A DNA stretch of 64,000 bases from Candidatus Omnitrophota bacterium (lineage in GTDB: Bacteria; Omnitrophota; Gorgyraeia; 2-01-FULL-45-10). Both the position numbers and the translations under genes were made by a program. Shown here piece by piece: positions 1 through 63,175 of this stretch. The stretch lies in assembly GCA_003142795.1 (NCBI GenBank), contig PLNN01000019.1:51991-115990 (forward strand). Direction: 5' to 3'. The notes under the pieces are model-generated. The model made no database searches and was not told the origin of the DNA. It saw nothing but the letters and a program-made list of their open reading frames with translations. The first letter of the stretch is position 1. Every line of letters begins with the position of its first letter.

Positions 1-3000
1 CTTGCCGCATTCGCCGCTATCATCACAGTATGGCGGCAGCATCCATCGACAGTTTCTCGTATAGTTAAAGCCGCGATCGTTCCCGCAGTTTGCATCGGAG
101 CTTCTTATCTCTTCGGGGATCTTTACGCCGGCCTTTTCAAGAATTCCGCATGGAGTTTGAAAACCATGCTTGCCAGCACGATCATTGGCGGAGCGACTTT
201 AGCAGGCGGAAGCTACATGGAACAGACGGCAAGAGGCGTAAAGGTCGATCGGTCCGAAGTCTTTCGCTGGGCGATAGCAGGCTCCGCCCTCTTAGGGCTT
301 CTCGCTTATGGCGCATGGTTCCCGTTGTTGACTCATTTGACAAAAGATAACAATTTCCTGTTTGCGGCGCTGGACATGTGCGTCTTCGCGCCATTTGTTT
401 TCATTCCTCTCGAATTCCTTGCCAAGAAGTATTTAGTGTCACCAGGGGACACAACAAATACTTTTAAAAACACGCTCCAGACGTGGGCTTTTGTTTCCGT
501 ATTAAATGTCGTTTGGTTCGGTCCTATCTTATTTTTAGGGAGAGCCCTCTGGCCGGACAAGATCGTCCTGATCGATGCCAATGCAGCAGTAATTTGGGCA
601 GGGCCTCTCGTCTATTTCCTTGGGGTTTGGAAAAGGTTCGGCGGTATATCCGGCCTGGCGAAGAAAGTCTTTAAGCTCAAAAAAGAGGCACTGGAAAAAG
701 ATGCCCCACTAGTGATACTGGGAGGCGAGGAAGAGCTGGCTTCCGAACTGCGCGGTTTTGCCAGATATTCGATGGTCGAGCAGGACCAGACCATAAAGAC
801 CGTCGTGGCGCACGGATTTAATGCCGGGAATACAGGGCTCCTACAGGATGATATAGAGATTCTATGGCAGCACTCATGGTTTGTCCGGCTGGTCAACTGG
901 CTTGAGAAAAGGCATCCGTCGATTTATGAAATGATAAGAAAAACTTACAGATCCTTTGGTATAGAGCTCGTCAAGACCGTTCCAACGATGGGTGCGTTCA
1001 TGTACGGATTTGGCGCCGGCGCACATAGGAATGATTTTGAGAAGGTTTTGCTATATCGCTCGACGAAAGGTTCGCGCAGCGCGCTTGCCATTGTCGATGA
1101 GGCCGAAGACGTCTTAAGGCGAAGTAAGGGGAATTTCGATCAGGACGTCAAAATAATAGCGTTCTTTAAAGCGTTGAAAAGATATGCGCGTTTAGTAGAC
1201 GACCAGGCTGCTCGCCACGGCCTTGATCTGACAGGCGTTTGGGGAGATGCGGCCAAGAGGGCGCGGCCGGTGACCATTCAGAACATCCTGGCGCTCGGGA
1301 CTTTTCTTGAATCGGCAAAACCGGGCCGCATCAGCCTGCGTAAATATTACAGGGCCCTCAACAGGGTAAGCTCTATACTCGAATCCCCGGCTGTGCCCAT
1401 ACATACATCTTTATGGAGCCATAAAGAAGCAACGCCGGTGGGATACCTGAAAGAAGCCGAAGAGCTTAAAATGCCGGATGGGTCGATCGTCTTTACCGAT
1501 AAGATAGTAGGACAATGGAATCTTAAAACCGTTAAACATGGTCCACTAGTTAAGATAGATGTTGTAAATACGGGGACTGGTGAGAAAGCCGTTTTGCCAG
1601 TGGTGCCGGAGGCTTTGAGGGCTATAGAAAAAGCGGAAGAGCTCGTCATCGCTCCGGAAAATATTCTGACCGATCTTAGTATGTTCCTTTCGGTTAAAGA
1701 GATCGCGGACGCGCTCGCCAAAAGAAAGGAGGCAGGCAAACCCACCATACTTGTGCTGCCGGTTTCGACCAAAGACGGCAATCCCGGCCTGATCGATGAA
1801 GGCATAGACGCGGCCCTTCGGGCAGGAATGGGTTACGGCATATCTGATATCGCCACGCATGTGATCGTAAACGACATTGAGAATGAGACGGATGTTCTTA
1901 TCAAAATTACCGCAAAAGAGATGTTTGCCAGAGAAGGCATGGAACCCGTTACGATCAGTCCCTCTTTCGAAAAAGTATTACGGGATAACGGCACGACCGT
2001 TTTTAAGGGTCCCTTGGGCGAGATCATCAAAACGCCGAGCAAAAAACCCGGGCTTGGGTCCCTGGAGGACAATTACCAGATAGCGTCGAACAGGCTTGCA
2101 TTCGTCCTGAAGATGATCGAGATATCGCATAAGTATAAGACGGCGCCGCTGTGGATAAGCGATATAGAAGGGACGATCAAACCGTCCGGCCATACGGTAC
2201 TGCCCTCCGAAGAAACGGAAGAGATCGCCTCGTGCTTAAAAGAAAACGTACCGTTCGGTCTCCTCACAGAAGCAGCAGCGGGCGATGCGGAGGAATCGAC
2301 CGCAAATCGCGTCAAAGCCCGGCTCGAATCAGGCGGCGCGACCGGCAAAATGCGCCTTATGCCTATGCAGGCGGTCGCGGGTTTGAGATGTTTTGTTTAT
2401 GATCCGGGTAACGGAAGATACGAGTTCATAACGGGTTTCGATTTAAGAAAAGAGATAGGCGACGATAAGTTCAATCATCTAAAGCAAATATGCGTCGATC
2501 TGGTCGAAAAATTCGGACTCGTGGAGCGTAATAAAAGATTGGGGTTTGCTGGCGAAAATGACAGCGGCTTCTGGGGACCTTATTTCGATGACCGCATAGG
2601 GGGAGTTACTTTTTCCGTGATCGGCAAAGACGCCTTGCAGGGATGGATCAGTCGGTACGAGACCAAAGGCGGCAAGGAGCTTAACCGTGTCTTACTGAAA
2701 TATTTAAATGACCGATGCGCCAACGAAGGCATTCCCGTAAAGTGGACCCTTGGGAGCGAATTCCAGATCGACGGAACGCATGAAAAGACAGACAAGGGGG
2801 ATGGTTTAAAATCCATAAGCGAGTTGACCGGCATTCCGCTGGAAGCCATAATTTTCAGCGGAGATAACATAAGATGGTCGAAAGAGGGCGAGCCTGGCGA
2901 CGACACCAAGGCGGCGCAGAGGGCAGGGTTCAGCCTCAACATGGACGGCAGATTACTTGATGAGCCGGTTGCCGGCAAGACGGTCATTACCGCATCGGAA

Positions 3001-6000
3001 AGGGGCGGTAAACACGGCATCCTTCCATACCTCCGTTTGTATAGGGCTTTTTACGCGACATTGCCGGATAAATATAAAGATTTTGAGAAGCGGCTTCAAG
3101 ACGGTATCGCACGCGAAAAAGAGCACCAGAAAAGGATGAGCCCGGAATGGGCAAGAGAACAGCTTAAGCTCTTTGTTGCGCAAGGTACTATACAAGGTGT
3201 GCCGGGAAAAGAGATAGAGACACTGTTCGATTATGCCGGAATTTTGCTTGATACAAAGACCGGGAATGAAGATGACTTGCAACTGGTTTATAAAACATTG
3301 AAAATAATTTCCCTGCTTGATATTTCTCCCGAATTAAGGCGTTTGACTGAGCATAAGTTACGCGACTTCGCCAGGAATACGCGCGCCAAAGATTTCGGAT
3401 CGTATAGCGGTGCCTACCAAGAAGGGGCTCTCAACATCTCCGTTAATACACCGTCCAAAGGACCTGCCCCGGTAGAAGCGCTTTCTGCGCTGGGCGCTGG
3501 CGAACAGTCCGCAGCCATCCATACCGGACTGGGAGCGTTTAAAGGCGGGAAAGTGGGGCACGTAATTTTATTGGGAGAGAACGAGCTGGACGAAGAATTA
3601 TTCAGCAGTCAAATGGAAAACATTCTTAAAATAGAGACAGCCTTCGGCTGCAAGGCAAGGGTCTGTATAGTTGCCAGCTTTAGGAATCACAGGGCGGTAA
3701 TTGAGCTATTAAAACAGAGAAAATTTTTTGGCCTTGAATCTGATCAGATTGCAATAGAATTTCAGGGGATCTATCAGAGCATGGGCGTGAGGGGACAAGG
3801 CCCATATTATTATCTGGAGGGCGGAAAGCATCTGGCAGCACCGGGTGACTTAGATGCGATATTGACACCGGTCTTGAGCGGAACGTTTACGGAATGGTCG
3901 AACGCCAGTGTCGAAGATATTATCGTATTGTCTTCGGCAGCTAAAGCTCCTGCAAATCCGGAAGAAGATTTTCTGATCCTTGGCCGGCTTATTGACACAA
4001 AGGCCGATATGGTCGTCTCTGTTACCGATAGGACAAAAGAAGACATAGGCGCTTCTCCGTATTATGACGCAGACAATAAACGTATAGTGCTATTGGAAGA
4101 TTATGCCGTTGGGCAAAATGTCACAAGAAATTTGCAGAGCAGCTTTCGCAACGCGGTTTCATTGTCGTCCCTCTTTAAACATATGGGAGTCGATCCTTTA
4201 CAGGCTCATGGCTTAAACCAGGCAGAATTATCAGATAAAGTCCGTGCTTTTATGCATGGATTGCGAGATAAGCCTTATGTCGTTCGAAAGGCAGTAACGG
4301 AAGAAGCCGGCAAGATAAGGCAATACAAGGTTGACCAGTTCAAGCATCCTTTCGGCAATCTCACTTTTAAACTGAAGACGGAGTATGTATATACGCCATC
4401 TCATAAATTAGCTACCGTATCTTCTGTCAGGCTTCGCAGATTCGGGCTTGGTTCGGTGGCGCAGATTATTTTAGCAGCTCTTCTTGTATCAATAGTAGGG
4501 GGAGCCGTTTGGCGCGACGCGCAGCAGCGGCTTGCTGTCGCGCTGCCGTATGGCATAACGATAGCGATAGTGATAGGCGCAATGATCTCAGCAACAATAT
4601 TGATACGTTGGATCATGAGTAATGGGTTTATATATATAAATGTAGGCGGCCAGCATCCTTCTCTCCTCAAAATAGAAAAAAAGATATGGCGCTCCATTGA
4701 TCGCGAAGACCAGGAAGCATTAAAATCGATAGTGGGCGCTGACGAAGCTGCGATAAAAGAGCTTATAGACCGTCCTGACAGCAGGATAGCGGAGTTTAAG
4801 GAGGATCCTATATCGCTGGAAGGAAAACTCGAAGAAGGTTATTGTGATGGGAGGACTATATATCTTCTGCTGAAGAAACCGATAATAACAGATGGCAAAG
4901 AGATAACCAGGTTAAGATTCCAGGGGGTCAGGCCTAAAATAGGCGAGAACGGAAAGATCGCTAATTATTCTGGTTACAGAGAGCTTGTAGCCGGCGAAGA
5001 TGGCCTTCTCCGTGTCGATGAGCCTCCCGCAGCCCGCCCGGCCGGCGCAAAACTTTATGACGGGGCATCGATAGAGTTTGAGGTCATGGATAATAGGTCG
5101 ATCCCCACCGATGTCGCGGTAGGTCTTGGCAAATACACGGGCATCGATTTCCAGGGGCAAAAGGTGGGCTACATCATAGCGGGAATGGAAGAACCCGATG
5201 GCCGCCTTTATACTAAAAAAGATACGATCGGCAGCATGTCTTGTGAATCGTTCAAAGAGCCGTCGAAAAAATTGACGATACTATTTCGCAAAGACAGTTT
5301 TAGCAAAGAAGAGCAAAGACGGATAGGGCGTACACTTAAAGCTAAGTATGAAGAGGGTGCAGGGGGACTTGAAGAGTCCGGCCTGCCCTTTGTTATATTG
5401 AGGGTAAGTAAAACACGAAACGACAGAATTAAAATAAAGCAAAGATATTCCAGCCACCCGGCTCAAAGATCGTCATTTAGATCTATCAGGGACCTTGACG
5501 ACGAAAGCGATATTTACCGTCAGTTTGGAAGGCTCATACGAAGAGCCCATGATAAAGGGTATTATGACCTGTTCCCAATTGTTATGCATCGTGAATACAC
5601 AGGTCCTACTATTCCCGAAGAGCAGACGCCTTCTTATTATGCGAGGTCGCATGAAACAAAAGTCGGCTTACGGCAGATCCGCGAAAGATGGGAAGTGGTT
5701 TCCAGAAATTTTTCCACGCTTAAACGCCGGGGTAAGCGGAATTCCTCAGAGAAAAACGCGGCGGAGCGGTTTATCGATATAACCAGTGTATTATTTGATC
5801 TTACACAGACCAAGATCACGAATATAGAGACAACTTTCGGTAATGCGCTTTACGGTGATGATGCCCCTACTCACACAAGTGCAACATCCATGGATGTTTC
5901 CCGTCTCATAGAGTCGTTCCTGGAAGGTTATTTTTATGATATCGACCCGCGCGACAGGACTTTCAGCGATATGTATGAAACTTGTATTCAATTCGAGCGC

Positions 6001-9000
6001 GATCCGAATAGATTACTAATGCCTGTCAATAAGCTCTACAACGCGATAGGGGTGGCTTTGTGGGAAGAGGAATCCGAGGAATTTGACAAATATCGCGGTC
6101 TCTTTATGCCAAATCTCATTGCGGCAGAGAAAAATAGCCGGCAGTCAGAAGGCGGCGCAGCCCGGTGGTTCAAGCCGCTGATCATGATGGGCGGGCTCGC
6201 AGCATTATCAGCTTTCGCTATAACGGCATTTGCAATATTGATACCTCATGCATCAGCAATACACACACAAGCCGTCACAGCTGCAATGCCGTGGTGGAGC
6301 GCGATACTCGGTATGTTCTTTTTAGGGTCTATCGGAGATTGGCCTTATGACCCAGGCAGGTCGCGCGGTGAAGACCCACACGCATTTGCCCTGCACCATT
6401 ATAACCAGGGGGTGCGTTTATGCAAGGCAGGACAATTAATAAAAGCCGTAGAGTGTTTTGACAAAGCCATCGAGGCTGTCCCGAATCATTACGCAATGCA
6501 TTATAACAGGGGGACGGCTTTGCTCGAATTAAAGAAATATGATGAGGCTATAAAGGACTTCGAACGAGTACTTGAACTAAACCCCGATTTTTCCATGGCA
6601 TATTATAATCGGGGCGAAGCGTACCTGGCGAAAGAAGAATATAGGGAGGCCATTGCAGATTTTACAAAGGCGATCGAGGCCGGACTTAAAAATGGCATTC
6701 TGTATTTCAATCGGGGCGTGGCCAAGCTGATAATTTATAAAGATGAAAGTGATCTTAGCTATAAAGATGACGGAATTCGCGATTTAGAAACAGCCGCGCA
6801 ATTGGAGCACCTGCTTATAGATAGGATCAGGTCGATAGCGGAAAATTATAACTTGGATATTAAATTACCGCCCCCGTCCTCGGGCCCGAGATTTATGTCG
6901 TTCCTCCTGCCGTTTATCATAGTAGCCTACTTTGCGAGCATGGGAGCCGTTTGGCCTGATATGCATCTGAGTTTTGCCGGCATATTAGCAGCCATGCAGA
7001 GTTGGTTCGCGACGGTCGGCGCCTCCGGCGCGCTACCGTGGATTGTAGGTGTAGCTGCAACAATCGCCGTCTTGATAACCACATTTATCGCATATAAAAA
7101 TAAATCCAAACCGTTAGTGTCTTCGCATCAGCCTTTTTTCTTTGTAAGACTGACCGGGCTGAAATATTTAATCGCTATTCCGCAGATATTATTAATGGCG
7201 TTTGTCCTTGGGTGCACCCCGCCAGATTCCGGGTCACAAAAAAATATTGAGAATAGAGCCGAGGAGGCCCAGATTGCCAAATTCGAAGAGGAAGAGGCGG
7301 AGCATGTTGATGAGATCGCCAAAGATAATAAGGACCTTCAGCAGAGAATAGCCGCTTTCGCCAGTATCGCAATGTCTAAATTCAGCGTCCACGGTTTCAA
7401 ATACGAAACGATTAACGATCGCGAGCGTCTAAAATCGCAGGAAGAAGGGACTAGATATCTCTTAGTTTCTGCGCGCGGTATAGACTCCATGTATCCTGCT
7501 GATGATAAGCGGGTAAAACTTGAAGTTTTGATGAAGAAATTTATAGACACCGCGGACGGGATGGTCAAGAATTCGTTCGGGACCGGCGATGTCCTGAACG
7601 AGTGCGATGCGATAATTAATAGAGCAAATAACCTGTATTTTATCCCCAACGGATATTTACTGGACTTCTTCGGCATAAACAAATTCGGCCAAGTCATTAC
7701 GTTCTCATACAAAATAGTCGATAAACAGCCTTATACGTGCAACGGCTACGATATTGGTGTCTGCTATATAGTCGAATTGACAGACTATTTTTCACAACGC
7801 CGTGCCGCCTACGCAACTAGCGGCAAAAAATTGATTATATTTAAGGATAGTTTAAATAAACCAATGGTCCTTCCCAAAAATGCCGGCGGCAGACATCAGG
7901 ACGCGATTAACAAGGAGCTTGCGAAGCTGCAGGCGCGTGACTCAATAGAGGATGCTGTAGATGCGAGCGCTATACATGAAGTTACGCATAGAGCTAATAA
8001 AGGATTTAAGGTGGGTTCAGGCTGGCTTGCGGGAAGCATGAGTCATGAAGATGAGGAAAAATCTGCCAGATTTTCCGCCTATTTTAATGGCAATGGTCAG
8101 GCGGTCGACATTGCTTATTCTCTGAGAAATATTGCTTACAATGCAACGCTGGACCAGGATGATCCAGATGGCGAATGTGCATTTATAGATGCGTTGGTGG
8201 TTCAGGGTATCCGGAAAGGATTATTTGATAAATCAGATTTTACATATGATACCCGAATTGGGCTGAATGGCTTGATGAATAGCCTCAGAAAAGAGACTAC
8301 CAAGATTGATGAAATGAATAAGGCCATTTTGTCGGTCGCTAAAGCATTTAATAAAGGATTTGATGCTGATGAAAAGGGATTTCGCGCCAAATTGAAAGCC
8401 CTTGTTCCCGAAGCGGCAAAACCATTGTTACCATCTTCTTATGTAATACCTGAAATCAAGCGTAAAGCCAGGCCTGCACCGGTAGAGCCGGCTCCTGTAA
8501 AAACTACGGAAGAGAAACCGTCCGCTGAATCTGCGGAACCGTCTAAAGAACAACCCGAGGCTAAAGCTCCTGTGAAACAGGCAGGGCCTGAGTCTGTAGT
8601 ACCTATTGTTAAGCCGGCAGCTCCGAAACCGGTATCGTTCCTCGTGCCTGTTGCCGATGATGCAACGGGTCAATTAAGGGTCGTCTTTAATATTGTGAAT
8701 AAGGCAAAGCAAGCTAATCCCGCCCTTGCCAACAATGGGAAGATCGAGACTCAGTATGGCGCCGGCAAATGGCTGACAAAGGTAAAATTGTCGGACGGCA
8801 AAGCAGCCTGGATATATATAGAACAGAAAGGCGACGGTAAAGCAGCGATTTTCACCGGTAAAAAACCAAAGTGGGTAGAGATCTATTTGATCGGCAAAGA
8901 CAAAAACGGTCTTTGCCTTTTCGACCCGGACGCCAAACAATGTACAGTTATCTCAGCGCGAGGGGATCTTATCGAAACAACCGTGGGTGAGGGGGAGACG

Positions 9001-12000
9001 ATAGAAGATGCGGTCAAAGAGGCACTTCACATGATACATAACCACAACACGCCATTCTACTGGCCTGCGCTCGCCATCGCGCCACAAACAACATTGCCGG
9101 ATCTCGGGTCGGCCGCGATACACAGCTACAATGAATTTAATACCGTCCTGCAGGTCTCCTATCGCTCCTACGGTATTACCATGCCCGCGGAATGGGACCG
9201 CATTATGCCGGCACTCTACGATACAATTTCGAGTCATACGGGATTCCTGTCTTTGAATAATCGTGAGCAGGTCACCATGATCAGGGAGCTGTACGATTTC
9301 CTTCAGCGGAAGCGGTACGAAAAGGCATCCATCAAACTTATGAGCCGCGACCATACCGTGCTCGCGTTCTTCGGCCGATCATCCGGTAAAGAAGGGGATA
9401 TTTTCGAAACCAGGTACGCAAACGTAGTGGATGTATACGGGGGCCATCTCGAATTATTCAAACCCGGCGAAAAAGGCATGACGCCTATGGAGGCGAAGGA
9501 AAAGTTTCTGGATCGTGCAGCGGAGCTGGCGGCAGCCGGAAAATTCGTAACGCTTATGGTGTGGTCTCATGGAGCGAAGACCGGGTTCGAGGTGAGCGGT
9601 ATGATGGGTATCTCCGACGCCGAGATGGCCGGCGCATTATCCGGTTCCCGCATTAAACTTAGTAGAAAGACGATCGACCTGACGAGGGTCAATGGTATTT
9701 TTAACTGTTGTTATGCGACGGATTTTACACTCAATATGCTTTCCGAACTCAAGCGCCAGACGGATGAAATGGGTAGTGCGCTCGTTTTCCCGGGTTCGAT
9801 CGTCGCAAGTACGTCACGCAATAGAGAAGCGCTCAGCACCGCCTTATGGGACAGTATAGGCGAATACCACGTCAGGACTAAGGGTAAAGACTCAAATAAC
9901 CCCTCATTGCCGCTTGGCGCAATCCTGACCTTTGTCGATGCCAATCTTTATACCCAAGGCCGCAAGCCAGAATTTGATGAAAACAATAAAATAAAAGGAT
10001 GGACCGTGCTTAAGCCTGAAATACTGCAGGATCCAGCCGTAATTATTCCGCTTAATGACAAAGACCGTGAGGAGCTACGCCGTATACTTCGGCTGAAGGA
10101 TTCCATGCCGGCGCCTAACTTTATCCAGATCGGGCTTGCTGAGCCCGCGCGCAATTTAAAACAAGAGGTCATCGACAGCGTTCCCGGTCTTGTTTCTGCG
10201 GCTGTGGCCGGATATAAAAGCCAAGGTGGGGCGTGGTTTCCCGGAACATTCTACCGGAAATTCATCGCGCCGCTCGAGACGCCGGTCTCGTTCGGGCTGG
10301 CATTTGCAGTAGCCCAGGCATTCGCGATGCGGATGGGGTGGCATGACATGGCACGGCCGCTTTGGCTTATGACCGCGCTTGTTCCTATAATTTTCTGGGC
10401 AGGACATATTCCCCGCTCGATTTACGACTATTATAAAGGAAATAAGATCACTGCACTTAAAGCAGATGTAAATATTCTTACAATTGCCGCTGCCGCAGGT
10501 ACTGCAGCCTGGCTTGGGGCAACAATGACCTTCCCCGCACTGAACAATATAGCTCCGTTACTGCTTTATTTCGGCATAATATTTCCGCTCACAATTCTGC
10601 ATATATATATCAATTGGAAAGACAACGTGGCCGGACATGACAAGAGGCCGTTTGCACAATTTACTTTAGGTACGCTTCTTACAGTTATGTTATATACCGC
10701 TTTCTTCTTCAGCGGTTATACAACATTCAGCCGATACTTTATTACGAATCCGAACGCTCCTATTCTTGAACAGCTTGAAGTGATCGAGCGAAGGGCTGCG
10801 ATACATAATAAGGTGAAAGGCCGTACCTCTGAACCGGTCTTTGGCATAGAGCCGATCGACGAGTCTATCATGCGGGCAAGTTTATATGAGCGCCTTGCCA
10901 GGGAAGATGCCGAAAATCGAAAAGAAGCCGTTGCAGGACTCCCATGGTATCAATCGCATGAAGACCTTGCCCGGGATGTTATCTATGTTACTCTGGAAGA
11001 CGGGTCGAAAATGGTTTACCTGGGAATAAAAGCAAATGGCATTAACCCGGATCCAAAACGTCCCGAAATGCCGATCAAGTGCATCCGTTTTCATGAAACG
11101 TACCAGAGCGTCATCGACCGCTACAAACCACTCCTGGCCCAGCCTGACGCCGGGACGCGTCTCGAGGCAGTGATAGCGCTCGGCATGCTTAAGGACCCTT
11201 CGCTCGTATCCGATTTTATGAGTGTTATAGAAAAAGATACGGATAGCCGCGTGCGGGGAAAGGCAATTGCCTCATTAGGATACATGGGGTATGGCGCCAA
11301 GCCGGCGATCGAACAGATCGTCCATATTTTTAAAAATAGCAAGGAAGACAGATTTGTCCGCATGATCGCAGCGGATGCTTTAAGCGGTATTGTCAAAAAT
11401 CTTCCGGATTCAAATGAGGACAAGACCGCAGTAATAAATATCCTTATTGACGTCATAAAAGATACGCTCTACGGCAGATTACAGGGCGATGATAAACAAA
11501 TCGGTAATGCAGCAAGTTTTGCGCTTATTAAAATAAAAGATCCGTCCACGGTCCATAAGATCATAGATGACATTCGTAAGGAAAAATCCGAACATGATAA
11601 AATTCAGCAGCCAAAAGATGAGCCGAGCAGCCGCAGTGAGCTCGGGTCCGACGCGTACATGAACTTTGCCGCCATATTCGGTACGCTCTTGTTAGGGACT
11701 ATCGGTAAATGGCCGTTTGCCTGGTTTACCTCGGACGGCGCAGGCTTATCGCAGAAAGCCAACAAATACTTTGAAGAAGCTATGAGGTGCTGCGAACACG
11801 GCAAATATGAAGAGAGCCTAGAGCCTTTTAACAGAACCATTGAACTGGCCCCGTATTATTATGCGGCATATAGAAACTTAGGAAATGCATATTTTATGTT
11901 GGATCGGTATGACGAGGCTATAGATAACTACAAAAAAGCGATCGAACGAAAACCCGATGATAATAATTCATATTTTAACATGGCTCAAGCATATGCCTTC

Positions 12001-15000
12001 AAAGATGAATATTCTGAAGCCGTCAAATGCATTACAAAGGCGATAGAATATCATACCGATGAAGATGAGCCTGAATATGGCGACCTATATTATAAGCGGG
12101 GCATCCTTAATTTTTACGCGGGTAATATAGAAGATGCCGAGCATGATTTGGAAATGGCCGTAAAATTAAAACCCGCACTCATATCCTCCGTCATATCATT
12201 CGTGCATGAGCATAAAGATAAATTAGATGTTAAGTTACCGCCCGCATCCCCGCCACCGGGCCAAGGCCCGAGATTTATGTCGCTCTTCCTGCCTTTTATT
12301 ATTAGTATAGGCATTTTCGCAAGTTTTGGAGCCGTCTGGCGCGACGCGCATCTGAGTTTCGGCAGCATATTAGAAGCTATACAAAGCTGGCTCGCGACGA
12401 TGGACACACCGGCTGTGCTGGGGTGGGCCGGCAGCATCTCAACCGGGCTTGCGCTGATGACAGCGATAATTGCTGCGCCGGAAGAAAGATTTAATTTAAG
12501 CGAACTCATCTCTTCTTATAAAAAAGATGTAAAGATAAGGGGGTATACCGCGTCTGAAAAATACAGCGCTATAATAGCAAGACTTATAAAGGCAGCGGCT
12601 ACAGAAGAGATAATCGAAGCGCTGGATGATATCTTTGTTTCCGGGGTGGTAAAATTCCATATGGGTTTTTATACTACCGCCGGCATCCTGGAATCGAGGA
12701 TGAATCTCGTAACAAGAGTGCTTGCCGATGAATTAAAAATACGCATTGCCGGCAGCAGCGCCGTGCAGTCGCAAGAATTCGCCGCTTTATATAAAAAGAT
12801 AAAAGATATAAGAGATGCCGAAAAAGATGCCAGGCTAGGCTTCGCGCGCTACGCGCTCAAAGTAGAAGGCAAGGGAAGCGGTGTGCGTAAGCGAAATGTG
12901 CCTGAAACACACAGGAGGTTTGACGAGTACGAAAAATTCCTTCATATAAGTTCGCTGGTCGAAGATATAAAAAACCGCAGGGACCTTTTAATCGCGAAAG
13001 GTGTTCTCGGAAAAGACGAAGCGATGAACATGCTCGACATAGGTTGCGGCGAAGGCGTATTTCTTGAACAATTGAGCGAAAAACTTACGGAAGCAGGTAT
13101 AAAGGCGAATCTGACCGGAACGGCCCTGAGAAGGAGTGAGGGATGGGCTGAAATAGAGGCAGCGCATAGCAATATTAAATTCATGGAGGGGATGGCTGAG
13201 GCGATGGATATTGGAATGGGGACTATCCACTATGCCGTAAGCGTCTATATGCTCCATTATTCGGAAGATAAGCTTAAGGTGATAGAAGAAGTATACCGCG
13301 TTCTTAGTCCTTACGGCATAGCGAGGATACATAGCAACGAGGAATCTACTCAAAAAGGCACTCCGCGATGGGAGGTTCTATTCGGCCGGATGGATCTGGC
13401 CGGCAGTTATAAGCTCCGTGTCGAGGACGCATATGAGTATAAAGGTACGGACAAGGACTATGAGGGGCCGGCCCTTGTGATCGAAAAAGACGATCCCCGG
13501 GAAATGCCTTGCGATCTATTATTCCCATATACACTCGACTCAGAGGGATTTTATCATCCTATAAGAATAGCACAGGTTAGACGCGCTGTTCCATGGCTGA
13601 AGACGGTCGCGATGATCCTTTTGGCCCCCCTTGCTCTGTTAGTGTTAGAAGGGGCCGGCTGGCGCGACGCGCACATGAACCTTGGCGGGATATTAGAATA
13701 CATGCAGAGCTGGTTAGTGACGATAACCACCGCGCCCGGCGCGCTGCCTGGGCTAACAACAATTTTTACGATGGCAGGCTTTGCGTTTGGTTCATTTATA
13801 ATAAGCAAAAGAGACATATCATTATTTTTTAACAAATCATCCAAGAAACAAAAAAACCAGCTGCTGAACGGCAAGATCCAAAAGGTATGGCCGGGCAAGC
13901 TCTCTGGCGATAAGATCAATAAAGCGCTCGATAGCGCGATTGGACACCTTCCTGATAATCTGCAAGAAATAGTGATACTTAAATATTACGGCGATGGCGA
14001 TAGCGGGCCCTTAACAGACTACGATATCGCAGATCGCTACAAGGTAACCGTTGCAGCGATAAGGGATTCCCTTAGGCGGGCGCATAAAAGGATAAAAACG
14101 GATCTTTTGGAGCAGAATGCGGTAAAGGATATTCTGCCGTCATATCTCGATCCCAAAAAATTGCTGGAAAAACGCTTTTTTGCAAGATCGCATACAGACC
14201 GCGGCGGATTTGCGTTGCTTGATATAGCGGCAATAATTCCGCTTGCGGGCCTTATCGTGGCACTATCGGGATCATTTATTATTGGCATGGCGCTCGGCAG
14301 CCCGTCTGTATTTCTGCGCGATTACATCCATTTCGCCTCCGGCGCGTTTACCCTCCGAAGCCCCGAATGGTTAATGAATATCGGCGTAGGAGGGCTGCCG
14401 TGGCTTAAATACATTGCAGCCTCTATTTCTTTATCCGGATTTCTGATGGCCAGGTCCCGCAAACGTGATTTACGGCAAGCCCAGTCAATGCAAGCGTCGA
14501 AACCCCAGCCGGTCAGGCCGAGAGAGCGGAAATACCTGCGCCTATTGAGCGATTTCGAAAAGAAGCGCGCCCGGGTTATGAAGTTGGCGGAAGCCCAGCC
14601 TCCGGCGCCTTGCCGCATCGTATTCGACGATAAGAATATCGGTAAAGATAAAATAACGTCTATAGAGGAAACAGTACGCGCGCAATTGCCCCGTCTTCAG
14701 GAGATGGCGAGAACCGGATACGACATCTCTTTCGGAGCGTCCAGCCAGGATATATTACGCACCATATATATAGAAAGAAGCCAGCGGCCGGAAGGAGAGA
14801 TAGAGCTGACTCGTGACCGCGCGTTCCTCGCGCTCCATCTGCCTGTTGAAAACCCTGACATAGCCGCTAGGGCGATGAATGATCTGATGGAAAAAATGGG
14901 TAAATATCTCAAAACCCCGAATGTGGGAGTTACAACTATCGTTCCCGTTGTTCATAGCGACAGTGCCAGCTTTGGAAACATAGATTATCTCATAACCAAA

Positions 15001-18000
15001 TCGTTGCGTGACGCAAAGAATGAGGGCAGGCGCGCCGAGATCATCGTCGAATGCGGTGTAATACAGCCATACTCGTGCTACGAATCGGATCTCGAAGAGT
15101 TTAAAACAACGGATGCGTATAAAAGGATGAATAAGAAGCCAAAAAATCTTTCCAACATTTTATTTGATCCGGGCTTCAAAGACGCCCGCGCCGCGTTCTT
15201 AAATTATGTTCATGATGAAGAGCTCGATATGCAGGACGAAACAAGCAGAATGATATACAGCGGTTTTGATTCGAATATTAAATATATATATCCCAGAGAA
15301 TCTTTCTCAGCCCCGCTTTATATGCGTCTTTTCAAGGCGCAAGCCGTGCCTATCCATGAAGATATATGGGACGATACAACATTATTGTTCCTTAGGCTTG
15401 ATTATAATTCATTCGACCGCCTGAAGCCCAAGATCCCGGTTACCTTTAATGAGCTTACGCGGTTCGAAGATAGTTACCTTCAAACCCAGCTTGACTTCAT
15501 AAAAATAGCTCATATCCGGGACGCCCGCCTGGAAAGGCAGCTTGCCGCATTGCCTCTCGATCCGGATGTCAAGGACCGCCTCTTCATTCTCGGCGGAAAA
15601 CATGCGCGCGGGATCAAGAGATATTCTCCCGTTGCGTCATTATTCCAATTTCAGGATGAATCGGCGCATTGGCGGCAATTGAAAGATGTATATCCATTCA
15701 TGCATGCGCGAGCTACGGCAGAGAGCGTTCTAAGCGACGCGATACACGATTGGATCGACGAGAAATTTCCGGATGGAATTCACGACCCGACACCAGGATC
15801 GGATGAAATGCAATCGTTTATTGCCATGAATATTCCAGACGATGACAACTGGCGCCACATGATAGATATAGATTTCATCGAGTTCCTCCTTGGTTTATCT
15901 AAGGAACGTGCGGATAAGCGGCCGCTTACCGAGAAAAATCAAGTTCGCGTATATGGTATCCTCAAAACTATCGTGGGTGACATGGGCAGTGGAGATCTGA
16001 AAAAATGGCTTATAGATTATTGCAATACCGCGCCGGGATCTCAAAGTGCCGCAACAGACCTGATCAATCAGCGGCTGCGTGAACGGCTGTCATCGGATGA
16101 ACGCGCATTCTTGTTAGGCGATCCGGATTCGCGCATAACCGGCGTAGCATGGATGGGGAAGAAGAATTTCGATAGTCGCAGTATTTATAGCGCAAGTAAC
16201 CCCGTAAGAAAATCCACCGCAATGGTCGGCGGAGTAATTTTACGATCGGACCTTGGAGGGGAAAGCCATCCCGGAAAAGGAAGCGTTCCGGATGAGGACA
16301 GGTTAAGCGAAAGCGTTCTCGAAAACTGGATGAGTGTTATAAAGGATGGAAACAAATTAGGAGAAAAAGCAATACCCGTGGTGCTAAAGGGCGGCGCGGC
16401 ATCCGGAGATGAGAAGAGAGATTTTTATACATGCCTGCACTTCCTTACATTCAATGTGTATGTAGTACCGGCAGAGGAATTAAACGGCCGTAGTTTCTGG
16501 TACAGCGATGCTACAAACAGTGTCTATATAGCAGACCGCGCCTTTACGCAAGCAGAGCTGGCAAAGATAATTGGAGAATTGCAATACATTCAGGATCGTA
16601 TAAATGCCGGCAGGTCCGATGACATAGAGAATAGGGCATTCAATTGGACGTGGACCAATGCCGAACCGCCGCAACTCGAAAAACCCGTTTCGAGCGAAGG
16701 ACAAAATGATACGGCTAATAAAGCTATCGGCGAATCGGATGACAACAAACAGATCAATTCTGGCGGGGAACAGAACAATGGACGAAGGGCCAGAAGGGAA
16801 AAGAAGGTCGAAACGCCCGCCCAGAAGGCGGCAAGTTTTATACCCCCTATCAAGTCGGCGGTGAGTAGGGCGCTCGCCGGAAGCATCCTTCCGAATATGA
16901 CCGCTTTGATAGATCCGAAACTGAGGACCGCTCCGACTATTTTGTTTGACGCGTCTTCTTATAAGAACCCCGTATTAAGTATTATTGGTATAGTCGGCAG
17001 TCCAAAACTTATCCCGATAATCCCCGACCCACGCGTATTGAAGACCCTGGATAATAGCAGTCGGTATACAGCTCAATTTTCTATGGATGAGATCAATTTT
17101 CGTTTAAAGGAACGCCATCCGGAGACGGCCCTGTTAAATGACGAATGGACCGATCTGGCAGTTACCCAGATACAGGCATACCCTTCACAAAAGAAAAGAG
17201 AGTGGTTAACCCGGCAATTTTCCGTGCTCAGGGCCATTGTGGAAAGATCGACAGGCGCTTTTGCAAATGATATGGCCAAATATCCGGCCGAAACTAAGAT
17301 CGTGCGGGACGCCGCAAATAAACTCGAGATGTCGTATAGGACGGTCACGAAAAAGATATTTGAGCTGCAAAGGAAGCTTAAGGCAAAGAGCAATGACGGC
17401 TGGATAACATCCGCAGACGTTGCAGAAAACATGGATTCGCTGAAAGAAGTAATGGCGGCATGGCCTCGCGGCATCTTTGTTTTAGAAAAAAATAAATCGC
17501 TTCTTTCTGGCGATATGAGAAGAATGGACGATTGGATATTGGAGTTGCAGAATACGCTGCTGCCGTCCCTGAAAAATTATGACATCTTCAACCTGCTTTC
17601 CGATAAAGCTGTGGCGCAAATGCCGGCCGGTATATTAAATGAAGTCTATTATGACGCATTTCGGTCGGTGTGGCTCGAGGAACTGCGCGATATCGGGTCG
17701 AGCATTGCGGAATCGGGCGATGAAGAGCTTGATGGCTATGCGTGGGAATGCTGCAGGCTGGCTTCATACGTATTCGCGCTCGAATGGGAATCTGTATTTA
17801 CCGACTTAACCGCCGAAAAGGCGGTGCCTGCAGGGAAAAGCAGTTTCGTTTCAAATACGCCGATAGGCGGGGCGGGTATTTTATTATTAGACGGTGAGAT
17901 GCAGCCGCGCGAATTTATTCCCGGCGCCGGCACGATGGATGCCGGCGACCTTGCATTGAGGCACCATCCGTTCATGTTAAAAGAGCAGTACAGGCCGGGC

Positions 18001-21000
18001 GATCGCATAGTGATAGTCTGCCCTTCTACCACGGGTTTTCCCAATTTCGAACAGATCCACTCATATTTGGAAGACATGTTCGTCCTGCGCAGGATGCTTC
18101 CGGATTCTCCGCAGGTATACCTTGGAGTTGCGACTATTTCGGGAGAGATGCGCCTGTATGGGATGGCCGGGTCGCGCGAAGGCGGTGATCATTGGGCAGA
18201 GCTTATCAATAGTCTCTATGACGAGCTTCCAAAATACCGTAAACTTAAAAAGACATTAAAGGATTCCTTCGCTTTACATGCCGATAGAAAAATATACGAT
18301 AGATATATAGGCGATGATACTGAAAAGGATAAGAAAAAGAGGCCATCATTGCGGATAGGCAATAGCAGTACAGTTATCTCAAAAGAAATGGAGGATATCC
18401 TCGCAAAGAAAGATGAGGGGGAGATAGAAAAGATAGAGAATAATCCTATCTACATGATCATGAAAGATGTAGTGGAACAATTGCCTTTGAACATAAGAAA
18501 GTCTCTTATCGAAGGTTACGGCCGCGAAGAGGCGGACAGGATAATGAATGCGGTCATGAACAGGTTCGAAAAACAATTCAGGGACCTAAAGGCATTTTCA
18601 AAGACCATCTATTCGGTAAACGATCTCGATAAGTTTTTCTGGGAGATATCATCCAAAGTTTCAAGGGTTAACATGTTCATAGCCGAGTGCCGTGGTTCTG
18701 ATCTCCTCGATGAATACATAACTCGAAAAGGGTTTCTGGAGGTCGTAGAGATAGGCGGCCTTACCGTATCTACGAACCCTTCTCCAATACAGGGCCTGGC
18801 TCCTCCCCCTACACAAGGCGAGACTGCCCGCCAGAGCGTCCTGTCCAGGGTTATGCGCAGTCATGCGCAGTCTTTTGCGCCGGACAAGGTCCTTCGCGCG
18901 GGCAAATCTATCATCGATCAGCTCAGGAACGATGCCAGACAATCGCTTGACGGTAAATTGCTTCCGAATTCTGTCAGTATCCGTCCAGAGGTGATGAATA
19001 TGGGCGAAACGCTCATAGAAACAGACAATCTTTCCGTGGACAGACCGCTCTTTAATCTATGCTTCATGCATGATTTTCTTGGCATTTCCACTCAGCCGAA
19101 TTTTGTAGTAATCCCGGACCCAAAGAGCATAGCCCCTTATTTACAGCGATATAAGACCGTTTTGGACAAATATGAATTGACTACGAGGCTCGAAAAGGCC
19201 AACCCGGCCGCTAAGAAATTATACAATATATACCGCGATGAAAAGCCGGCGCCGGATGTTGATCCGGAACTATTGTGGAAATGGACGAGAGACCTCTGCA
19301 TCAACGCTAAAGAGGTGTTGGAAGAGCGTTACGGGAACATTTATAACATTGAACACGATATCGAAGCGCTTAAGGATAAAAACCCGAAAATTGCAGGCGA
19401 GATAGAAGATGCCAAAAACACGGTTGTGGGCCTTGTTAAAAAAGAATTTAAAGTAAGCCGTATGGCTATAGAGGCCTTTGATAGATTATGTAGATTTAAA
19501 AAAGACGATAAAATTCCCGCCTCCGAAGTAAAAAGAGAGATCGAGCAGCTTATAGCTTACCTTGATACATGGCCAAGATTGCAGTTTGGATTGAGAGATA
19601 CCCTTAACGATCTTTCTCAAGGTGAGGATTATGTTGAGTTCGAAATATTGGAAAATATAATATCCGAATTCGGGAAGGCCCTGAGCCAGCACAGGTTCCA
19701 GATCTTTGCAGAGCATTCTTTGCATAGTGAAGCCATGGAGCTGATCTATTATGACGCCTTAAGGCTTGCACTGTTGAAATTATGCACGGACCCCTCAGAA
19801 GGGATATTGCCGCGCATATCGGCATGGGCCGATCATAAACAAAATATCCCGGTTTCGATGAGAACGGACGTCTATCGCTTGTTTGATGAGACTATGGGCC
19901 TTGTGCAATATGAAGTGATCACCGATGCCATAAAAGAAAAAGTGCTTGTAGGAAAATCAGATGATAGATCGAGGGCGCATCCGCCCATAGGAGGCTTGGG
20001 CGTATTATTTCTTAGAGGGGCCGGCGAGGATAACGGTCAATTGCAGGTCCGGCGATATTTGCCCGGCGCTTACCTGTCCAGTCCGGGTAAAACGCAGTAT
20101 AACCCGCAATATGTAAAACGCTGGTATCAGAAAGGCGATAGCATTATTCTGATGTACCCTTCATACAGCGAATATCTCAATGCGGAAAGTATCAGGAATT
20201 TTGCGGAAGACTGTCTGAATCTCCGTAAAGATGTGCCCGGATTATCGGAAATACTGGTCGGCATTATGCAGCCAAACGGCGCTGTGGCGGTCTACCGCCC
20301 GAGGGCGCAGCTGGATGACGCTGCTGCATTGTATCAGTTGACGTTTAAGACCGCTGAGATCTTGAGCCCTTACCTATCGCAGTTCAGGGTTTATGTGGAA
20401 GATGAAACCTTTATATGGTTTTCCAGGGCTTTCACAGAATTTCAGAGCCGCAGCAAAAACATGCCTTTTAATAGCGGGGATGGGAATAGGCTTTTAAAGT
20501 TGAACCCCGATAGGTCGGTATTATTCAATATGTTCCGCCAAAAAGCAAATGACCGCCTGAGAAGCCTGGGAGCTATACTTGTCAAAGGCCTCGAGAGGTG
20601 CGGGTATGATCATAAAACCGCTGTTTCTATGGTAGAGCGGGTAAAAACACGCCTTAACGGTGAATTCAGAAAGATTAAAACGTTCGATGTCGCTATCGAT
20701 GATGGCCAGAGCGTCTTTTTAAATGATAAAGGCTTAAGAGAAGAGATGGAGACCATTGTCTATAAAGCTATAATGGCTGTCGGCGAAGAGATGGCGAGTT
20801 ATTTGATCGAGGACCAGGAATTATTCGAGCCGATCAAGATCCGCGGGCTGACAGATACAGATGAGGCCGCCAGAAAAAGAGAAGCCGCGAAAGCGCAAAG
20901 GCTGAAGAGAGAAGAATTGCGCAGAAAAATTGCAGCTATTCGCAAGACAAATTTTACCGATCCACAGGCTGTCCGTCAAGCATTTGAAGACAGCAAAATG

Positions 21001-24000
21001 CTTTTTGATAATGTTGCCGCGGCCGGAGAGATCAAAGGGGCCCTTGCTGAGCATCTTCATACGGTAATCGGCCACACGTTGGCCGAGAAATTCGTTAGAA
21101 GAACGCTCGATGATTCACAAAATATGTGGGAGGCGTTCCTAGGCGGCGAGGCTGTTGAAGCGGATGCCTTCTTCAATCTCGGCGAACGGCAGGCATTGGC
21201 AGAATTGGTGATGAACGCTGAATCAGGCAGTGAGGTGAATGGATTTAAAGCCGGGATCGATACAGCTCGCCAGCAATTTCCCATAATGGATTCCATCAAT
21301 GGCTGGGCGGAACTTGCCTATTATGTTTTGGAACAGGATGAGATCGGCCGGGACGATATAAACACTGCCGTAGAAATGATCAAGCCTATCGAAGAAAGCA
21401 TTAAAGGGCTTTCCGGCGAGGATTCACAGCGCGCGGAGGATCGTTTCAGGCAAATTCTGAATAGTTTTAAAGATAGACTAACCCCCGGCATTCTCTCCGA
21501 GCTGGAAGAGATGTTTCCTGACGGTAACGGCGCGGAGGATATTGAATGGGAGAGGCTTATAAGGTTATTACCTGGTTTAGAACTTGCGTGCCGTGTGTTC
21601 AGTGAGGCCGGCTTATATTCATCACAGGCTGAGCGGGATAAATTTGAAAAAGGAAAACTTAAAGTCCAAGCAGCCGTGGAGGAGCAGGGAGTGTATTATG
21701 AAATAGCCAGGCTGAATAACGAAGAAAAGGATACTGGGAAAACCTCTAAAGAAAAATCAGCGAAAGTCTTAAGGCTTAATATAGGCAATTCGCTGGTTTT
21801 TTACAACCGGTATAGCGGCAGGCCAATAAAGATAACGCTTAACAGGATTGAAAAAGGGCGGCTATACTTTGACGTTGATACCCCATTCGGACTTGTAGCT
21901 ATAGGGGGCGCTGAGCTGTCAAGAACGGCTTTTAATCATAATGGTGAATGGCGCAGTACTTCTATTAGAGAGCGCGCCGCAGACCATTGGAAAGCGGTAG
22001 ACGGAAGGCTGCGCTTTATCACTCTGTGCGGCATCGACCTGTTTTCAAGAGAGCGGGATTATGGTGTCGAGAACCGTCTCTGGGTTTTTCCGTATAAAGT
22101 GTTATATGGCTTGATAGAAGACGACACTATAATCGTCGAATCTGCCGATACAAAAAAGGACAATAAAAGAGATGAAGATAAAGTAGAATTTAAAAATGTC
22201 GATGCCGGTATATGCCTGCGGATAGATCGTGTATTACCTGACGGGACCGCTAACGTTGCTCTGGAAGACCCGCTTAACCAGTGCGACTACAATAAGGTCG
22301 AAGTTATTGAGCCGGCCGGGCAAAAGCCCGTGGCTAATTCCGCCGTCAATTGGCTGAATCTCGGCCTGGCGTTACTCGGTTTTGTGCCGCTTATCATAAG
22401 TCAATTCTTCGGGTTCGACCTGTATAATTTTATCCAGACCGCTGCGGTTATCAGTTCTATCTATGTTACCTCGTTCCTAATACATGAACTGAACCATTAC
22501 CTTGACCTATATGGCTACTCATGGAAGAACCTGAAGAGTTTCGTGACGGACCGACCAGCGCTTGAAGTGAATGCCGAAGGTATAAGCGTCTCCGGAGCGA
22601 GAGGAACTCCCGGGGTCCTGGTAAGTGCGGCATTAGGATACGTCTCATATCTTTTCATATCGCTGATCCCGCAATACGCGATTCCCGCCTTGATCATAAA
22701 CATAGCACTCATCTCTAAATCAGACCTCACGAATATAATGAAAAGTGATGTTTTTAAAGAACTGATCATTAAGATACGTGGCAGCGAATTTTATAATGCA
22801 CTGTATGAATTCATGTTAGAGATTTACAGTTTCGTCGCAGAAATTTTTAGCGTCTTTAATGATATTTTTCAAACTTTGGTATCTATTATAAAAGATCTTC
22901 TTGCCTCATTTGAAATATTGTTCGAAATATCATTCAAATCTGCCGAAGAGATGGAGCGAGAAAGAGAGCAAAGGAAAGACGAGGCGAGGCAGTTATTGCA
23001 TTTCTTATCCGACAACAGATATTCTCTCGGCCAGTTTAGCGCACAGCAGGTAGTTCGCAGGGTCCTCGATAAAGGTAAAACATTAAGGTCGTTCATATTA
23101 CCGGACGGCGTTTCGAGAGGAGTATCATTGAATGCTGTCATTAATGCATATATAAAAATAGACGGAAACCAAGAGACTGCGCTCAGTCTGAGCCAGAAGA
23201 ACGCCGTCAGCGATAATATGTTTGTCCGGCAGGAAGCGGTAGATTCGCTCTATAATTTCCTTCCATATGCTACGGACCTGGAAACATTCGAGGATATCTG
23301 CGATACGCCGGTAAAGACAGTAGAAGGTGGAGCTTCAACAGCAATAAACCTGTTCCTTAAGAATGCGGCCAGCCCGTTGGAGGCCCACCAGGATCTTACC
23401 AACACTATTATAGCTAAAATAATCTTTGGCAATTGTTCTGATCTACTGATCAAAAAGTTGGTGAAATGTCTGGGCTCAGCCGATAAAGATGAACGTCATA
23501 ATGCCGCGAACCTCTTGATATTGCTGACGAAGAGAGATGATGCCGACATAGTGAGCGCCATTGTCGGCGAGATCCCGAATATAAGAAAAGAATATTTTGT
23601 CTATAACGATGCGGAGATCGCGTATGGCGCGTATAGCCTGCTGGCGGGACTTGCAAGAGAGACAGAAAATGAGGCGATACTCACGGCTATAATAATAGAA
23701 ACACGGCATATAATCAGATATCTGAGCCTGGATGATGAAGCTATATGCGACAGGGTCAGATCAGCGGTCTATCAATTATTGTTAACAGGCAGAAAAAAAA
23801 TAATGGATGCCGTTGCCAGAGAGATCCCGGCCAGGATCATAGGATATATGAAAAATATCGAAGCCCCGCATGCCTGTTATGCCGCTCACGAACTTATGAA
23901 CCTTTTCATAACCAGCGGTTATCCTGTTATAGATGTCGCCATAGAAAAAAATCGCGCGGATATAAGAAAGATACTGATAATAAACAAAGAACTGAACGCG

Positions 24001-50177: not shown

Positions 50178-50196
50178 TCTATACGAGGTTATAACT

Positions 50197-53529: not shown

Positions 53530-53538
53530 AATAAGATT

Positions 53539-53580
53539 TTGATTTTTTAGTATGATTTTAGTATAATAATCATACTTTTT
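53539..53580 (+). promoter_or_regulatory. Near-consensus sigma-70 promoter (TTGATT-17-TATAAT) overlapping an inverted repeat and T-tract (agtatgatt/aatcatact, then tttt)
   Basis: The -35 TTGATT is at 53539-53544 and the -10 TATAAT at 53562-53567, with an exact 17-bp spacer. The -10 sits in the loop of a 9-bp AT-rich inverted repeat (53549-53576) followed by TTTT. This could act as a promoter for 53619, a weak terminator for 52501, or both. Confidence 0.45.
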
Positions 53581-53618
53581 GTTAGATTAGAACCAAAATT
53601 TTAGAAAGGGAAACAGCA

Positions 53619-55468: not shown

Positions 55469-55499
55469 GATATAGGGACCGGTAGCCAGAGGATAACGG

Positions 55500-56411: not shown

Positions 56412-56423
56412 TAAGCCCCTTCA

Positions 56424-56452
56424 TTGACAGGCAGTTATGGAAGTGCTATAAT
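56424..56452 (+). promoter_or_regulatory. Consensus sigma-70 promoter with extended -10 (TTGACA-17-TGcTATAAT) upstream of the GH130 gene
   Basis: TTGACA 56424-56429, TATAAT 56447-56452, exact 17-bp spacer, TG at 56444-56445. RBS agagagga precedes ATG 56511. Confidence 0.7.
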
Positions 56453-56510
56453 TTCCATCTATTTATATAAAATATAACTGATAAACAATACACACAAAGA
56501 GAGGAAAATA

Positions 56511-57455: not shown

Positions 57456-57493
57456 AGCTTAAAAGCGCAAAAAATAAAAAGGAGAGAACACCA

Positions 57494-61467: not shown

Positions 61468-61504
61468 GCCTGGTGCCTAATAAATAGGAGATAAGGAAAA
61501 TAAA

Positions 61505-63157: not shown

Positions 63158-63175
63158 TACCACCCCCGCGCAATT

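Follow-up and report, generated by a model that had tools for sequence, protein, structure and literature searches.

A giant gene, ORF1, fills the left part of a 64,000-nucleotide stretch of DNA from a Candidatus Omnitrophota bacterium (contig PLNN01000019.1; this whole stretch is called the window here), and its product carries recurring transmembrane (TM) hairpins that share the motif G-A-x-W-[RP]-D. Three of these hairpins (B, C and D) are homologous, and two of them, B and C, form the last part of a larger cassette in which the hairpin is preceded by a TPR block. The B/C repeats are real, ancient and selectively kept, and their standing as ancient paralogues is near certain. On balance, the hairpins are probably paralogous, lineage-specific membrane staples of a giant multi-domain protein that would be tethered to the inner membrane and inserted by a YidC-type route. 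Judged from its sequence, the hairpin family appears to be new and undescribed, inside a known kind of protein.

Homology of the hairpins and their cassettes

All features described here lie on the forward (+) strand. Cassette B (6295..7098), delimited by blastp against cassette C and by codon analysis, comprises a short hydrophobic segment (LGSIGDWPY), a TPR block (6367..6852; Pfam TPR_1, TPR_2, TPR_16 and others above their gathering cut-offs), a proline-rich basic linker, KLPPPSSGPRFMS (6862..6900), on the predicted cytoplasmic side of TM1, and hairpin B itself (6892..7098), in which TM1 (..FASMGAV) is followed by WPDMH, a loop helix, LSFAGILAAMQSWFAT, and TM2 from ALPW. Cassette C (11665..12477) has the same arrangement, with the hydrophobic segment LGTIGKWPF, a TPR block (11737..12210) recognized by Pfam and modelled by AlphaFold2 (AF2) as ten helices with high confidence, the linker KLPPASPPPGQGPRFMS (12232..12282) and hairpin C (12274..12477), consisting of TM1 (..FASFGAV), WRDAH, the loop helix LSFGSILEAIQSWLAT and TM2 (VLGW..). 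The duplicated unit starts at the short hydrophobic segment upstream of the TPRs, LG[ST]IG[DK]WP[YF] (ILGMFFLGSIGDWPY in one copy and IFGTLLLGTIGKWPF in the other). The TPR models reach 131.8 bits for TPR_1 (cut-off 27.8) and 115.6 bits for TPR_2, at residues 2114–2175 and 3903–3977 of ORF1, and in the AF2 model of cassette C residues 30–190 form a TPR-like helical repeat with a predicted local distance difference test score (pLDDT) above 90. Hairpin D (13597..13809), found with a profile built from B and C only, consists of TM1 (..VLEGAG), WRDAH, the loop helix MNLGGILEYMQSWLVT and TM2, and has neither a TPR block nor a KLPP linker upstream; between hairpins C and D, the chain carries a class I S-adenosylmethionine (SAM)-dependent methyltransferase (13003..13338; Pfam Methyltransf_25/11/31; PDB entry 3dh0, E = 1.3e-6). 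Hairpin A (4447..4608) has a TM1 ending in GGAVWRDAQ, a loop of seven residues and TM2. The motif W[RP]D[AM][HQ] occurs at nucleotides (nt) 4510, 6952, 12337 and 13660.

Cassettes B and C share 39% protein identity over 278 amino acids (blastp, E = 4e-58), and the alignment ends at the end of TM2, beyond which the flanks are unrelated. The profile from B and C alone detects D with 31.5 bits and an independent E-value (i-E) of 5e-8 in a local set of about 0.9 million residues, so that D is a true homologue. Pairwise identities among the hairpins range from 19 to 49%, and blastn finds matches for the pairs B–C, C–D, B–D and A–C. The first-pass annotation, which was made from the letters of this stretch, had described an intragenic duplication of a multi-domain cassette with a TPR block and KLPP..GPRFMS ahead of B and C, and had proposed to check it by off-diagonal self-similarity. 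The signal is real at both the protein and the DNA level, the TPRs are recognized by Pfam, GPRFMS is found at nt 6883 and 12265, and the duplicated unit proves to be larger than was described.

Omnitrophota loci originally retrieved for a different reason were also searched, about 1.1 Mb in all, and one further open reading frame (ORF) with the hairpin family was found in them. This ORF, here called L045 (JAQURV010000041.1, metagenome-assembled genome (MAG) STD1_81), lies directly upstream of a gene resembling ORF2, the gene that follows ORF1 in the window. Its first copy consists of a TPR block and then, colinearly, ..NLSLRSLFPAISRYLASLMPLLIAVGIFASIGANWPGYE.. (also ..GIFASIGANWPGYE..), with 28% identity to cassette B over 258 amino acids (pairwise E = 2e-18); a second hairpin, ..PGRIIPALLAVATLFISGGAAWRDGPPDPEKYIGYFQDLLNQYGISQWVV.. 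(..LFISGGAAWRDG..ISQW..), follows about 1,300 residues further on. Since no similarity between the L045 ORF and ORF1 is detectable besides the cassette, the latter has the character of an old and portable module. The 39% identity between B and C compares with 26–28% of either to the first L045 copy, which fits a duplication within the lineage, long ago.

Searches for the hairpin among known families gave only noise in Pfam at E values up to 10, a best PDB match at E = 0.18 to a TM segment of an orexin receptor, and NCBIfam matches whose overlap with the hairpins comes from TPR-model matches that extend beyond the neighbouring TPR block. Neither word-indexed protein libraries, queried with the four-copy alignment, with the 681-residue C-to-D segment and with a three-sequence alignment including L045, nor an exhaustive hidden Markov model search of 1.84 billion representatives returned a match for the hairpin; these library searches missed even the query protein and L045, so that such giants are evidently absent there and the negatives say little on distribution. 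Motif-based scans of DNA from GTDB genomes and JGI metagenomes gave no confirmed hairpin and one match with the TPRs only (L085). The wider search in other proteins that the first-pass annotation had called for has thus yielded the L045 ORF and, in the libraries, an uninformative blank.

A module homologous to the hairpin-A region of ORF1 and the domain following it was observed in a long ORF2-like protein of another Omnitrophota MAG (L040, JBAYES010000009.1; 254–11968, amino acids 810–1136). It matches the window at about 4340–5240 with 26% identity over 335 amino acids (E = 6e-11), its TM1 exit reads YGFSWSAN, and it provides further evidence of module shuffling between giant proteins.

Copy A is related to the others at the level of the motif. 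The first-pass annotation had counted four hairpin copies, each with the motif followed by ILxxxQSW; the motifs are all in place, B, C and D are homologous and QSW follows the motif in these three, but A has a seven-residue loop without ILxxxQSW and stays below detection by the B, C and D profiles (at most 5.6 bits; reciprocal i-E about 0.15). Five degenerate candidates also occur in ORF1. Three are possible short-loop hairpins without profile support, at 1..138 (..IITVWRQHP.. and then a second TM segment), 496..630 (..LGRALWPDK.., likewise) and 10285..10410 (..FAMRMGWHDMARP.., likewise, in a block of about five TM segments); two are possible distant relatives, one at 14209..14451, where FLRDY follows TM1 and TM2 opens with GLPW (profile score about zero), and one at 25624..25836, where PLVRDVY follows TM1 and the loop includes LALKSWWETVG (profile score not significant). 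Tryptophan is common at membrane interfaces, and copy A and these five could be unrelated hairpins in which an interfacial Trp–charged pair arose by chance or for biophysical reasons, as the lack of a significant profile score for any of them would allow. We regard such convergence as unlikely, while giving it real weight. Copies A and C share the exact string GAVWRDA and 22 of 23 nucleotides. The wider signature W[RPH][DQ] occurs eight times in ORF1, as against 1.2 times expected from composition and a maximum of six in 1000 shuffles, and seven of the eight sites directly follow a hydrophobic 18-mer, a context that holds for 4.5% of positions; the additional sites (nt 31, 550 and 10339) are all in short-loop hairpins. 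Of 38 such sites in other long Omnitrophota ORFs (317,451 residues), a TM segment precedes only one, found in the L045 homologue. This pattern, although picked after the data were seen, suggests that many ORF1 hairpins descend from one ancestral unit.

Position of the motif and membrane topology

The charged W-R-D-A-H had been placed inside a TM helix by the first-pass annotation and taken as a hint of an ion- or substrate-binding site. It lies instead just where TM1 ends and a loop of 7–30 residues begins. In the AF2 secondary structure of hairpin C, which is of low confidence, the TM1 helix is followed by coil (WRDAHLS), a 13-residue helix (FGSILEAIQSWLA), coil and the TM2 helix. Lysine or arginine residues and prolines precede TM1 in all four copies (KLPP..GPRFMS in B and C, RRAVPWLK in D and RLRRFG in A), with 2–4 K/R in the 15 residues before TM1 and 1–5 after TM2. 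In B, C and D the loops contain 0–1 basic and 1–3 acidic residues and are net acidic, the seven-residue loop of A contains two basic residues and one acidic, and TM2 begins with L-P-aromatic. The class I methyltransferase between C and D and a helix-turn-helix (HTH) segment after D are domains of cytoplasmic type and would mark the cytoplasmic side. An orientation with both hairpin ends in the cytoplasm (N-in/C-in) and the conserved motif facing the periplasm is therefore moderately supported. Full-length TM counting gives an ambiguous parity around nt 10261–10716 and 11653–11706.

The HTH segment, at 13924–14097 and some 40 residues beyond hairpin D, is a weak Sigma-70 region 4-like match that stays under the Pfam cut-off (E about 0.003). 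Right after hairpin B, at 7159–7215, a segment resembling a lipoprotein signal is observed: a basic stretch, LKYLIAIPQILLMAFVLGC and then TPPDSGSQ. The in-to-out orientation of the lipobox-like LKYLIAIPQILLMAFVLGC fits only a two-span, N-in/C-in hairpin B. Within the roughly 1,000 residues after it, an HExxH sequence (HEVTH, nt 7975–7989) and an SHG...NCC pattern (nt 9556–9726) occur, and Pfam and PDB searches with the 1,015-residue segment after hairpin B found nothing. This segment of about 1,000 residues may be exported or lipid-anchored.

In the mechanism that we propose, a basic, proline-rich cytoplasmic lead-in would be followed by TM1 ending in small-small-x-Trp (G-A-x-W), by [R/P]-D and by a short translocated loop, of seven residues in A and about 25–30 in B, C and D. 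In the latter three the loop would hold a semi-hydrophobic helix with ILxxxQSW, and TM2 would run from L-P-aromatic to a basic cytoplasmic exit. With both ends of each hairpin in the cytoplasm, the soluble modules (the TPR scaffold, the SAM methyltransferase and the HTH-like segment) would be stapled to the membrane and not exported. Since the translocated loop is short, each hairpin could insert co-translationally on its own by a YidC/Oxa1-type route, and independent hairpins would tether a chain of 10,000 residues at many points. A cassette of about 270 residues (hydrophobic segment, about five TPRs, linker and hairpin) was duplicated long ago to give B and C, whereas D is a hairpin-only copy and A keeps only the TM1-exit motif.

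The conserved face could also be a functional polar site, in which bundled hairpins contribute R, D, H, Q and S to an ion, substrate or metal site or to a pore at the periplasmic face. The aspartate and histidine stand at i and i+2 in B, C and D, Q-S-W is conserved as well, and the conserved residues lie at one membrane face. Yet the histidine is glutamine in A and absent in both L045 copies, the aspartate is glycine in the first L045 copy, and the polar residues are outside the hydrophobic core; moreover, no transporter, Pfam family or PDB chain is similar. Only G, A and W are invariant across six family members, which argues that the motif acts structurally or at the interface rather than binding a ligand. 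The binding site suggested by the first-pass annotation is therefore not supported, and a polar site of any of these kinds seems improbable. The conserved elements cluster at the periplasmic interface and look structural, combining small-residue packing with an aromatic belt.

A second possibility is that TM1 acts like an internal signal sequence and that a signal-peptidase-type cut after ..S-x-G or G-A splits the chain into anchored pieces. TM1 has a basic n-region and a hydrophobic core of 12–15 residues, with S-x-G-A just before the invariant W on the trans side; the lipobox-like LLMAFVLGC follows hairpin B, and for Omnitrophota giants cleavage has been suggested in a general way (10.1101/2023.11.21.568195). 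The −3/−1 pattern is, however, imperfect (F or M at −3 if the cut follows A), and the candidate at nt 25624 lacks it, while that at nt 14209 has a fitting A-L-G. Small residues beside tryptophan are equally expected from helix packing. We consider processing at these sites doubtful. Equally speculative is the broader idea that the hairpins are segmentation or assembly signals of a bacterial polyprotein, with the G-A-x-W-[RP]-D loop as a processing site or a hairpin-docking surface. If it were true, the product of about 10,500 residues would end up as an array of enzyme and scaffold modules, ordered and bound to the membrane, and the lipobox-like signal after hairpin B would serve to free a periplasmic segment of about 1,000 residues or to anchor it by a lipid.

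Age of the duplication

Over the whole cassette, B and C have 56% nucleotide identity in 271 aligned codons, with a proportion of synonymous differences (pS) of 0.62 and a Nei–Gojobori synonymous divergence (dS) of 1.30, and are separated by several indels. The TPR part gives a dS of 1.36 and a non-synonymous divergence (dN) of 0.64, and the linker and hairpin give 1.19 and 0.36. Even in the best-conserved core of 44 codons (GPRFMS..QSWxAT; 70% amino-acid and 77% nucleotide identity), dS is 0.77 and dN is 0.17. Amino-acid identity is 35% in the TPR part versus 70% in the core, with dN/dS ratios of about 0.47 and 0.22, respectively. At residues that B and C have in common, codon identity stays near 55% all along the cassette. 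DNA identity thus rises locally where the amino acids are conserved, a mark left by purifying selection on a small peptide and not by a recent origin.

The first-pass annotation had read the repeats as a recent duplication in a gene that is currently growing, on the strength of 80–85% nucleotide identity over about 150 nt. The measured values are 72.5% over 182 nt for B–C and 75.7% over 74 nt for C–D, and 76–81% is reached only in blocks of 53–74 nt. The longest exact shared word, of about 18 nt, contains the identical string ccgagatttatgtcg that had been pointed out. The short blocks of high identity, the 18-nt word and a 14-mer, TGGCGCGACGCGCA, identical in A, C and D would speak for recent growth, but B and C show neither the near-identical DNA nor the low synonymous divergence of a recent segmental duplication, their similarity stops at the cassette borders, and a homologous cassette is present in the MAG that carries L045. 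Together with the indels and the substitution values above, this makes a recent origin very improbable.

The 14-mer TGGCGCGACGCGCA (4510–4523, 12337–12350 and 13660–13673) encodes W-R-D-A and contains an interrupted palindrome, GCGCG-a-CGCGC, that occurs nowhere else in the 64 kb. A role as a DNA- or RNA-level element and gene conversion were both considered for it and set aside; against the background codon identity of about 55% at conserved residues it is only mildly unusual and counts as a minor point.

An assembly artefact, either a mis-join or a duplicated contig segment, had been raised in the first-pass annotation and can be practically dismissed, since 25–45% of nucleotides differ between the copies and about 18 nt is the longest word in common, a divergence at which a k-mer assembler would not confuse them, the reading frame is open over all junctions, and window 24504–64000 is identical to independently assembled Logan contigs while 18147–47842 has one mismatch to an ENA scaffold, the region of nt 4000–14000 being outside these contigs.

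The giant gene and its neighbourhood

The window-resident part of ORF1 (1..27915, 9,304 codons) runs in frame 1 without an in-frame stop from nt 1 to the stop codon at 27913–27915. The gene starts about 3.6 kb upstream of the window, and the entry 157..27915 in the ORF list reflects run-off at the left edge. A gene call on the ENA scaffold WOOD18-1_SAMN07125087_METAG-scaffold_48 (162.5 kb) gives a protein of 10,511 amino acids, with about 1,207 of them, at the N-terminus, encoded upstream of the window; more hairpins may be found there. The Pfam content of the window part consists of CofD, TPR, HEAT and a class I methyltransferase only, with weak HAD and Sigma70_r4 matches, and about 15 hydrophobic blocks are spread along the protein by hydropathy. 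With at least 10,000 amino acids in an Omnitrophota genome, spread TM helices, no dominant Pfam family and several unrelated enzyme domains, ORF1 falls into class 1 of Nielsen & Lui (2026). At 10,511 amino acids it is well short of the Archaeovorin/Dockerin-type giants of at least 30,000 (West-Roberts 2023), and no Pfam match to SecA_DEAD, peptidase C39/S8, glycosyltransferase or dockerin/TSP3 was found in the 9,304 codons of the window, the N-terminal 1,207 or so residues lying beyond it.

Sugar-phosphate enzymes are embedded within the very long proteins that follow. ORF2 (28147–37842; 3,231 amino acids) contains an ARMT1-like damage-control phosphatase domain, and in ORF3 (38001–50177; 4,058 amino acids) PGM/PMM domains I–II, a transaldolase/FSA domain and a weak cupin match are fused. 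The two proteins have a common N-terminal domain of about 500 amino acids after a signal-like segment (28147–29946 and 38001–39800; 34% identity, E = 9e-79), with motifs that include I[NH]IQDAH and LITGG[YF]HT and no Pfam match. More than 325 matching stretches were found in GTDB species genomes, the best with 57% identity; most of these relatives come from MAGs that bear the name Candidatus Omnitrophota or Omnitrophica, the others from records titled uncultured Planctomycetia or bacterium. It is a widespread uncharacterized head domain of long Omnitrophota proteins.

An ORF of 772 amino acids (50128–52446) without a Pfam match overlaps the end of ORF3 by 50 nt. Downstream, at 52501–63841, is a cluster with two GFO/IDH/MocA oxidoreductases, a xylose-isomerase-like TIM barrel, GH130, an MFS_2 transporter, PGM/PMM, two ABC permease components, GH113 with F5/8 type C, and an OmpR-type response regulator. 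By its gene content this looks like a mannoside or mannan utilization set. The GH130 gene falls into a cluster at 90% identity in which the named members are proteins from Omnitrophota MAGs.

Discussion

Several observations, added to the profile scores of copy A and the degenerate candidates given above, weigh against the reading of the hairpins as membrane staples. The TM segments were called by hydropathy and charge counts, the AF2 model of cassette C has a pLDDT below 50 in the hairpin, and the model of the C-to-D segment, made without an alignment, has a mean pLDDT of 39.6 and is unusable. Upstream of the TPRs, the hydrophobic segment has another TM segment as its partner in B and stands alone in C; if it spans the membrane, the topology parity breaks around cassette C. 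An arginine in a translocated loop runs contrary to the positive-inside trend, the equivalent of the loop helix in the first L045 copy is hydrophobic enough to be a TM segment itself, and L045 is the single external homologue.

Among known systems, ORF1 is closest in kind to the Omnitrophota giants, the class 1 'multi-enzyme metabolic clusters' of Nielsen & Lui (2026) and the proteins of West-Roberts et al. (2023). Long Omnitrophota proteins have TM helices every few hundred residues, scattered enzyme domains with HEAT and TPR repeats, and old repeats (10.64898/2026.06.07.730766; 10.1101/2023.11.21.568195). ORF1 shares with the giants its Omnitrophota origin, a length above 10,000 amino acids, decayed repeats, regular TM helices and sparse, diverse enzyme, HEAT and TPR domains. 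It differs in that its repeat is a TM hairpin with a motif of its own, G-A-x-W-[RP]-D, without a Pfam or NCBIfam model and coupled to a TPR block, and in that its window part has no SecA_DEAD, dockerin or C39 domain.

Other comparisons are by analogy. The M13 procoat protein is a classic short-loop substrate of YidC. The ORF1 hairpins resemble it and other YidC substrates in having two TM segments, a loop of at most 30 residues and basic cytoplasmic flanks on both sides, with net acidic loops in B, C and D; the analogy is mechanistic and involves no sequence relationship, and the ORF1 hairpins are internal to a giant chain, unlike a small stand-alone protein. Oxa1/YidC inserts TM pairs with short translocated loops (PMC7616256), and the hairpins show the corresponding two spans, a loop below about 50 residues (the length given in that source) and basic flanks. 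Membrane-associated TPR scaffolds, of which MamA, PilW, Tgl and NlpI are the best NCBIfam matches, are similar in placing four to five canonical TPRs beside a membrane anchor, but all score below their equivalog cut-offs (97 versus 200 bits for MamA), and the similarity is that of TPRs in general. In flavivirus polyproteins, TM hairpins separate the mature proteins and signal peptidase cuts on the luminal side. These resemble ORF1 in the long chain, the soluble modules between TM hairpins and the small residues at trans-side ends; the conserved site of ORF1, in contrast, follows TM1 and not TM2, the system is bacterial, and cleavage would be hypothetical.

As an ordinary feature of a known class of proteins, the hairpin is not surprising in itself, and the finding is useful as a handle on how the giants are tethered. 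The history of the cassette also illustrates that local DNA similarity within a giant gene can stem from protein-level constraint on a small motif and is not evidence of recent growth. More broadly, these observations bear on how Omnitrophota make, insert and organize proteins of 10,000 to 147,000 residues, for which published surveys give TM-helix counts only. The locus supplies a concrete recurring unit, a short-loop hairpin whose conserved face would be periplasmic, as a candidate tethering or insertion module.

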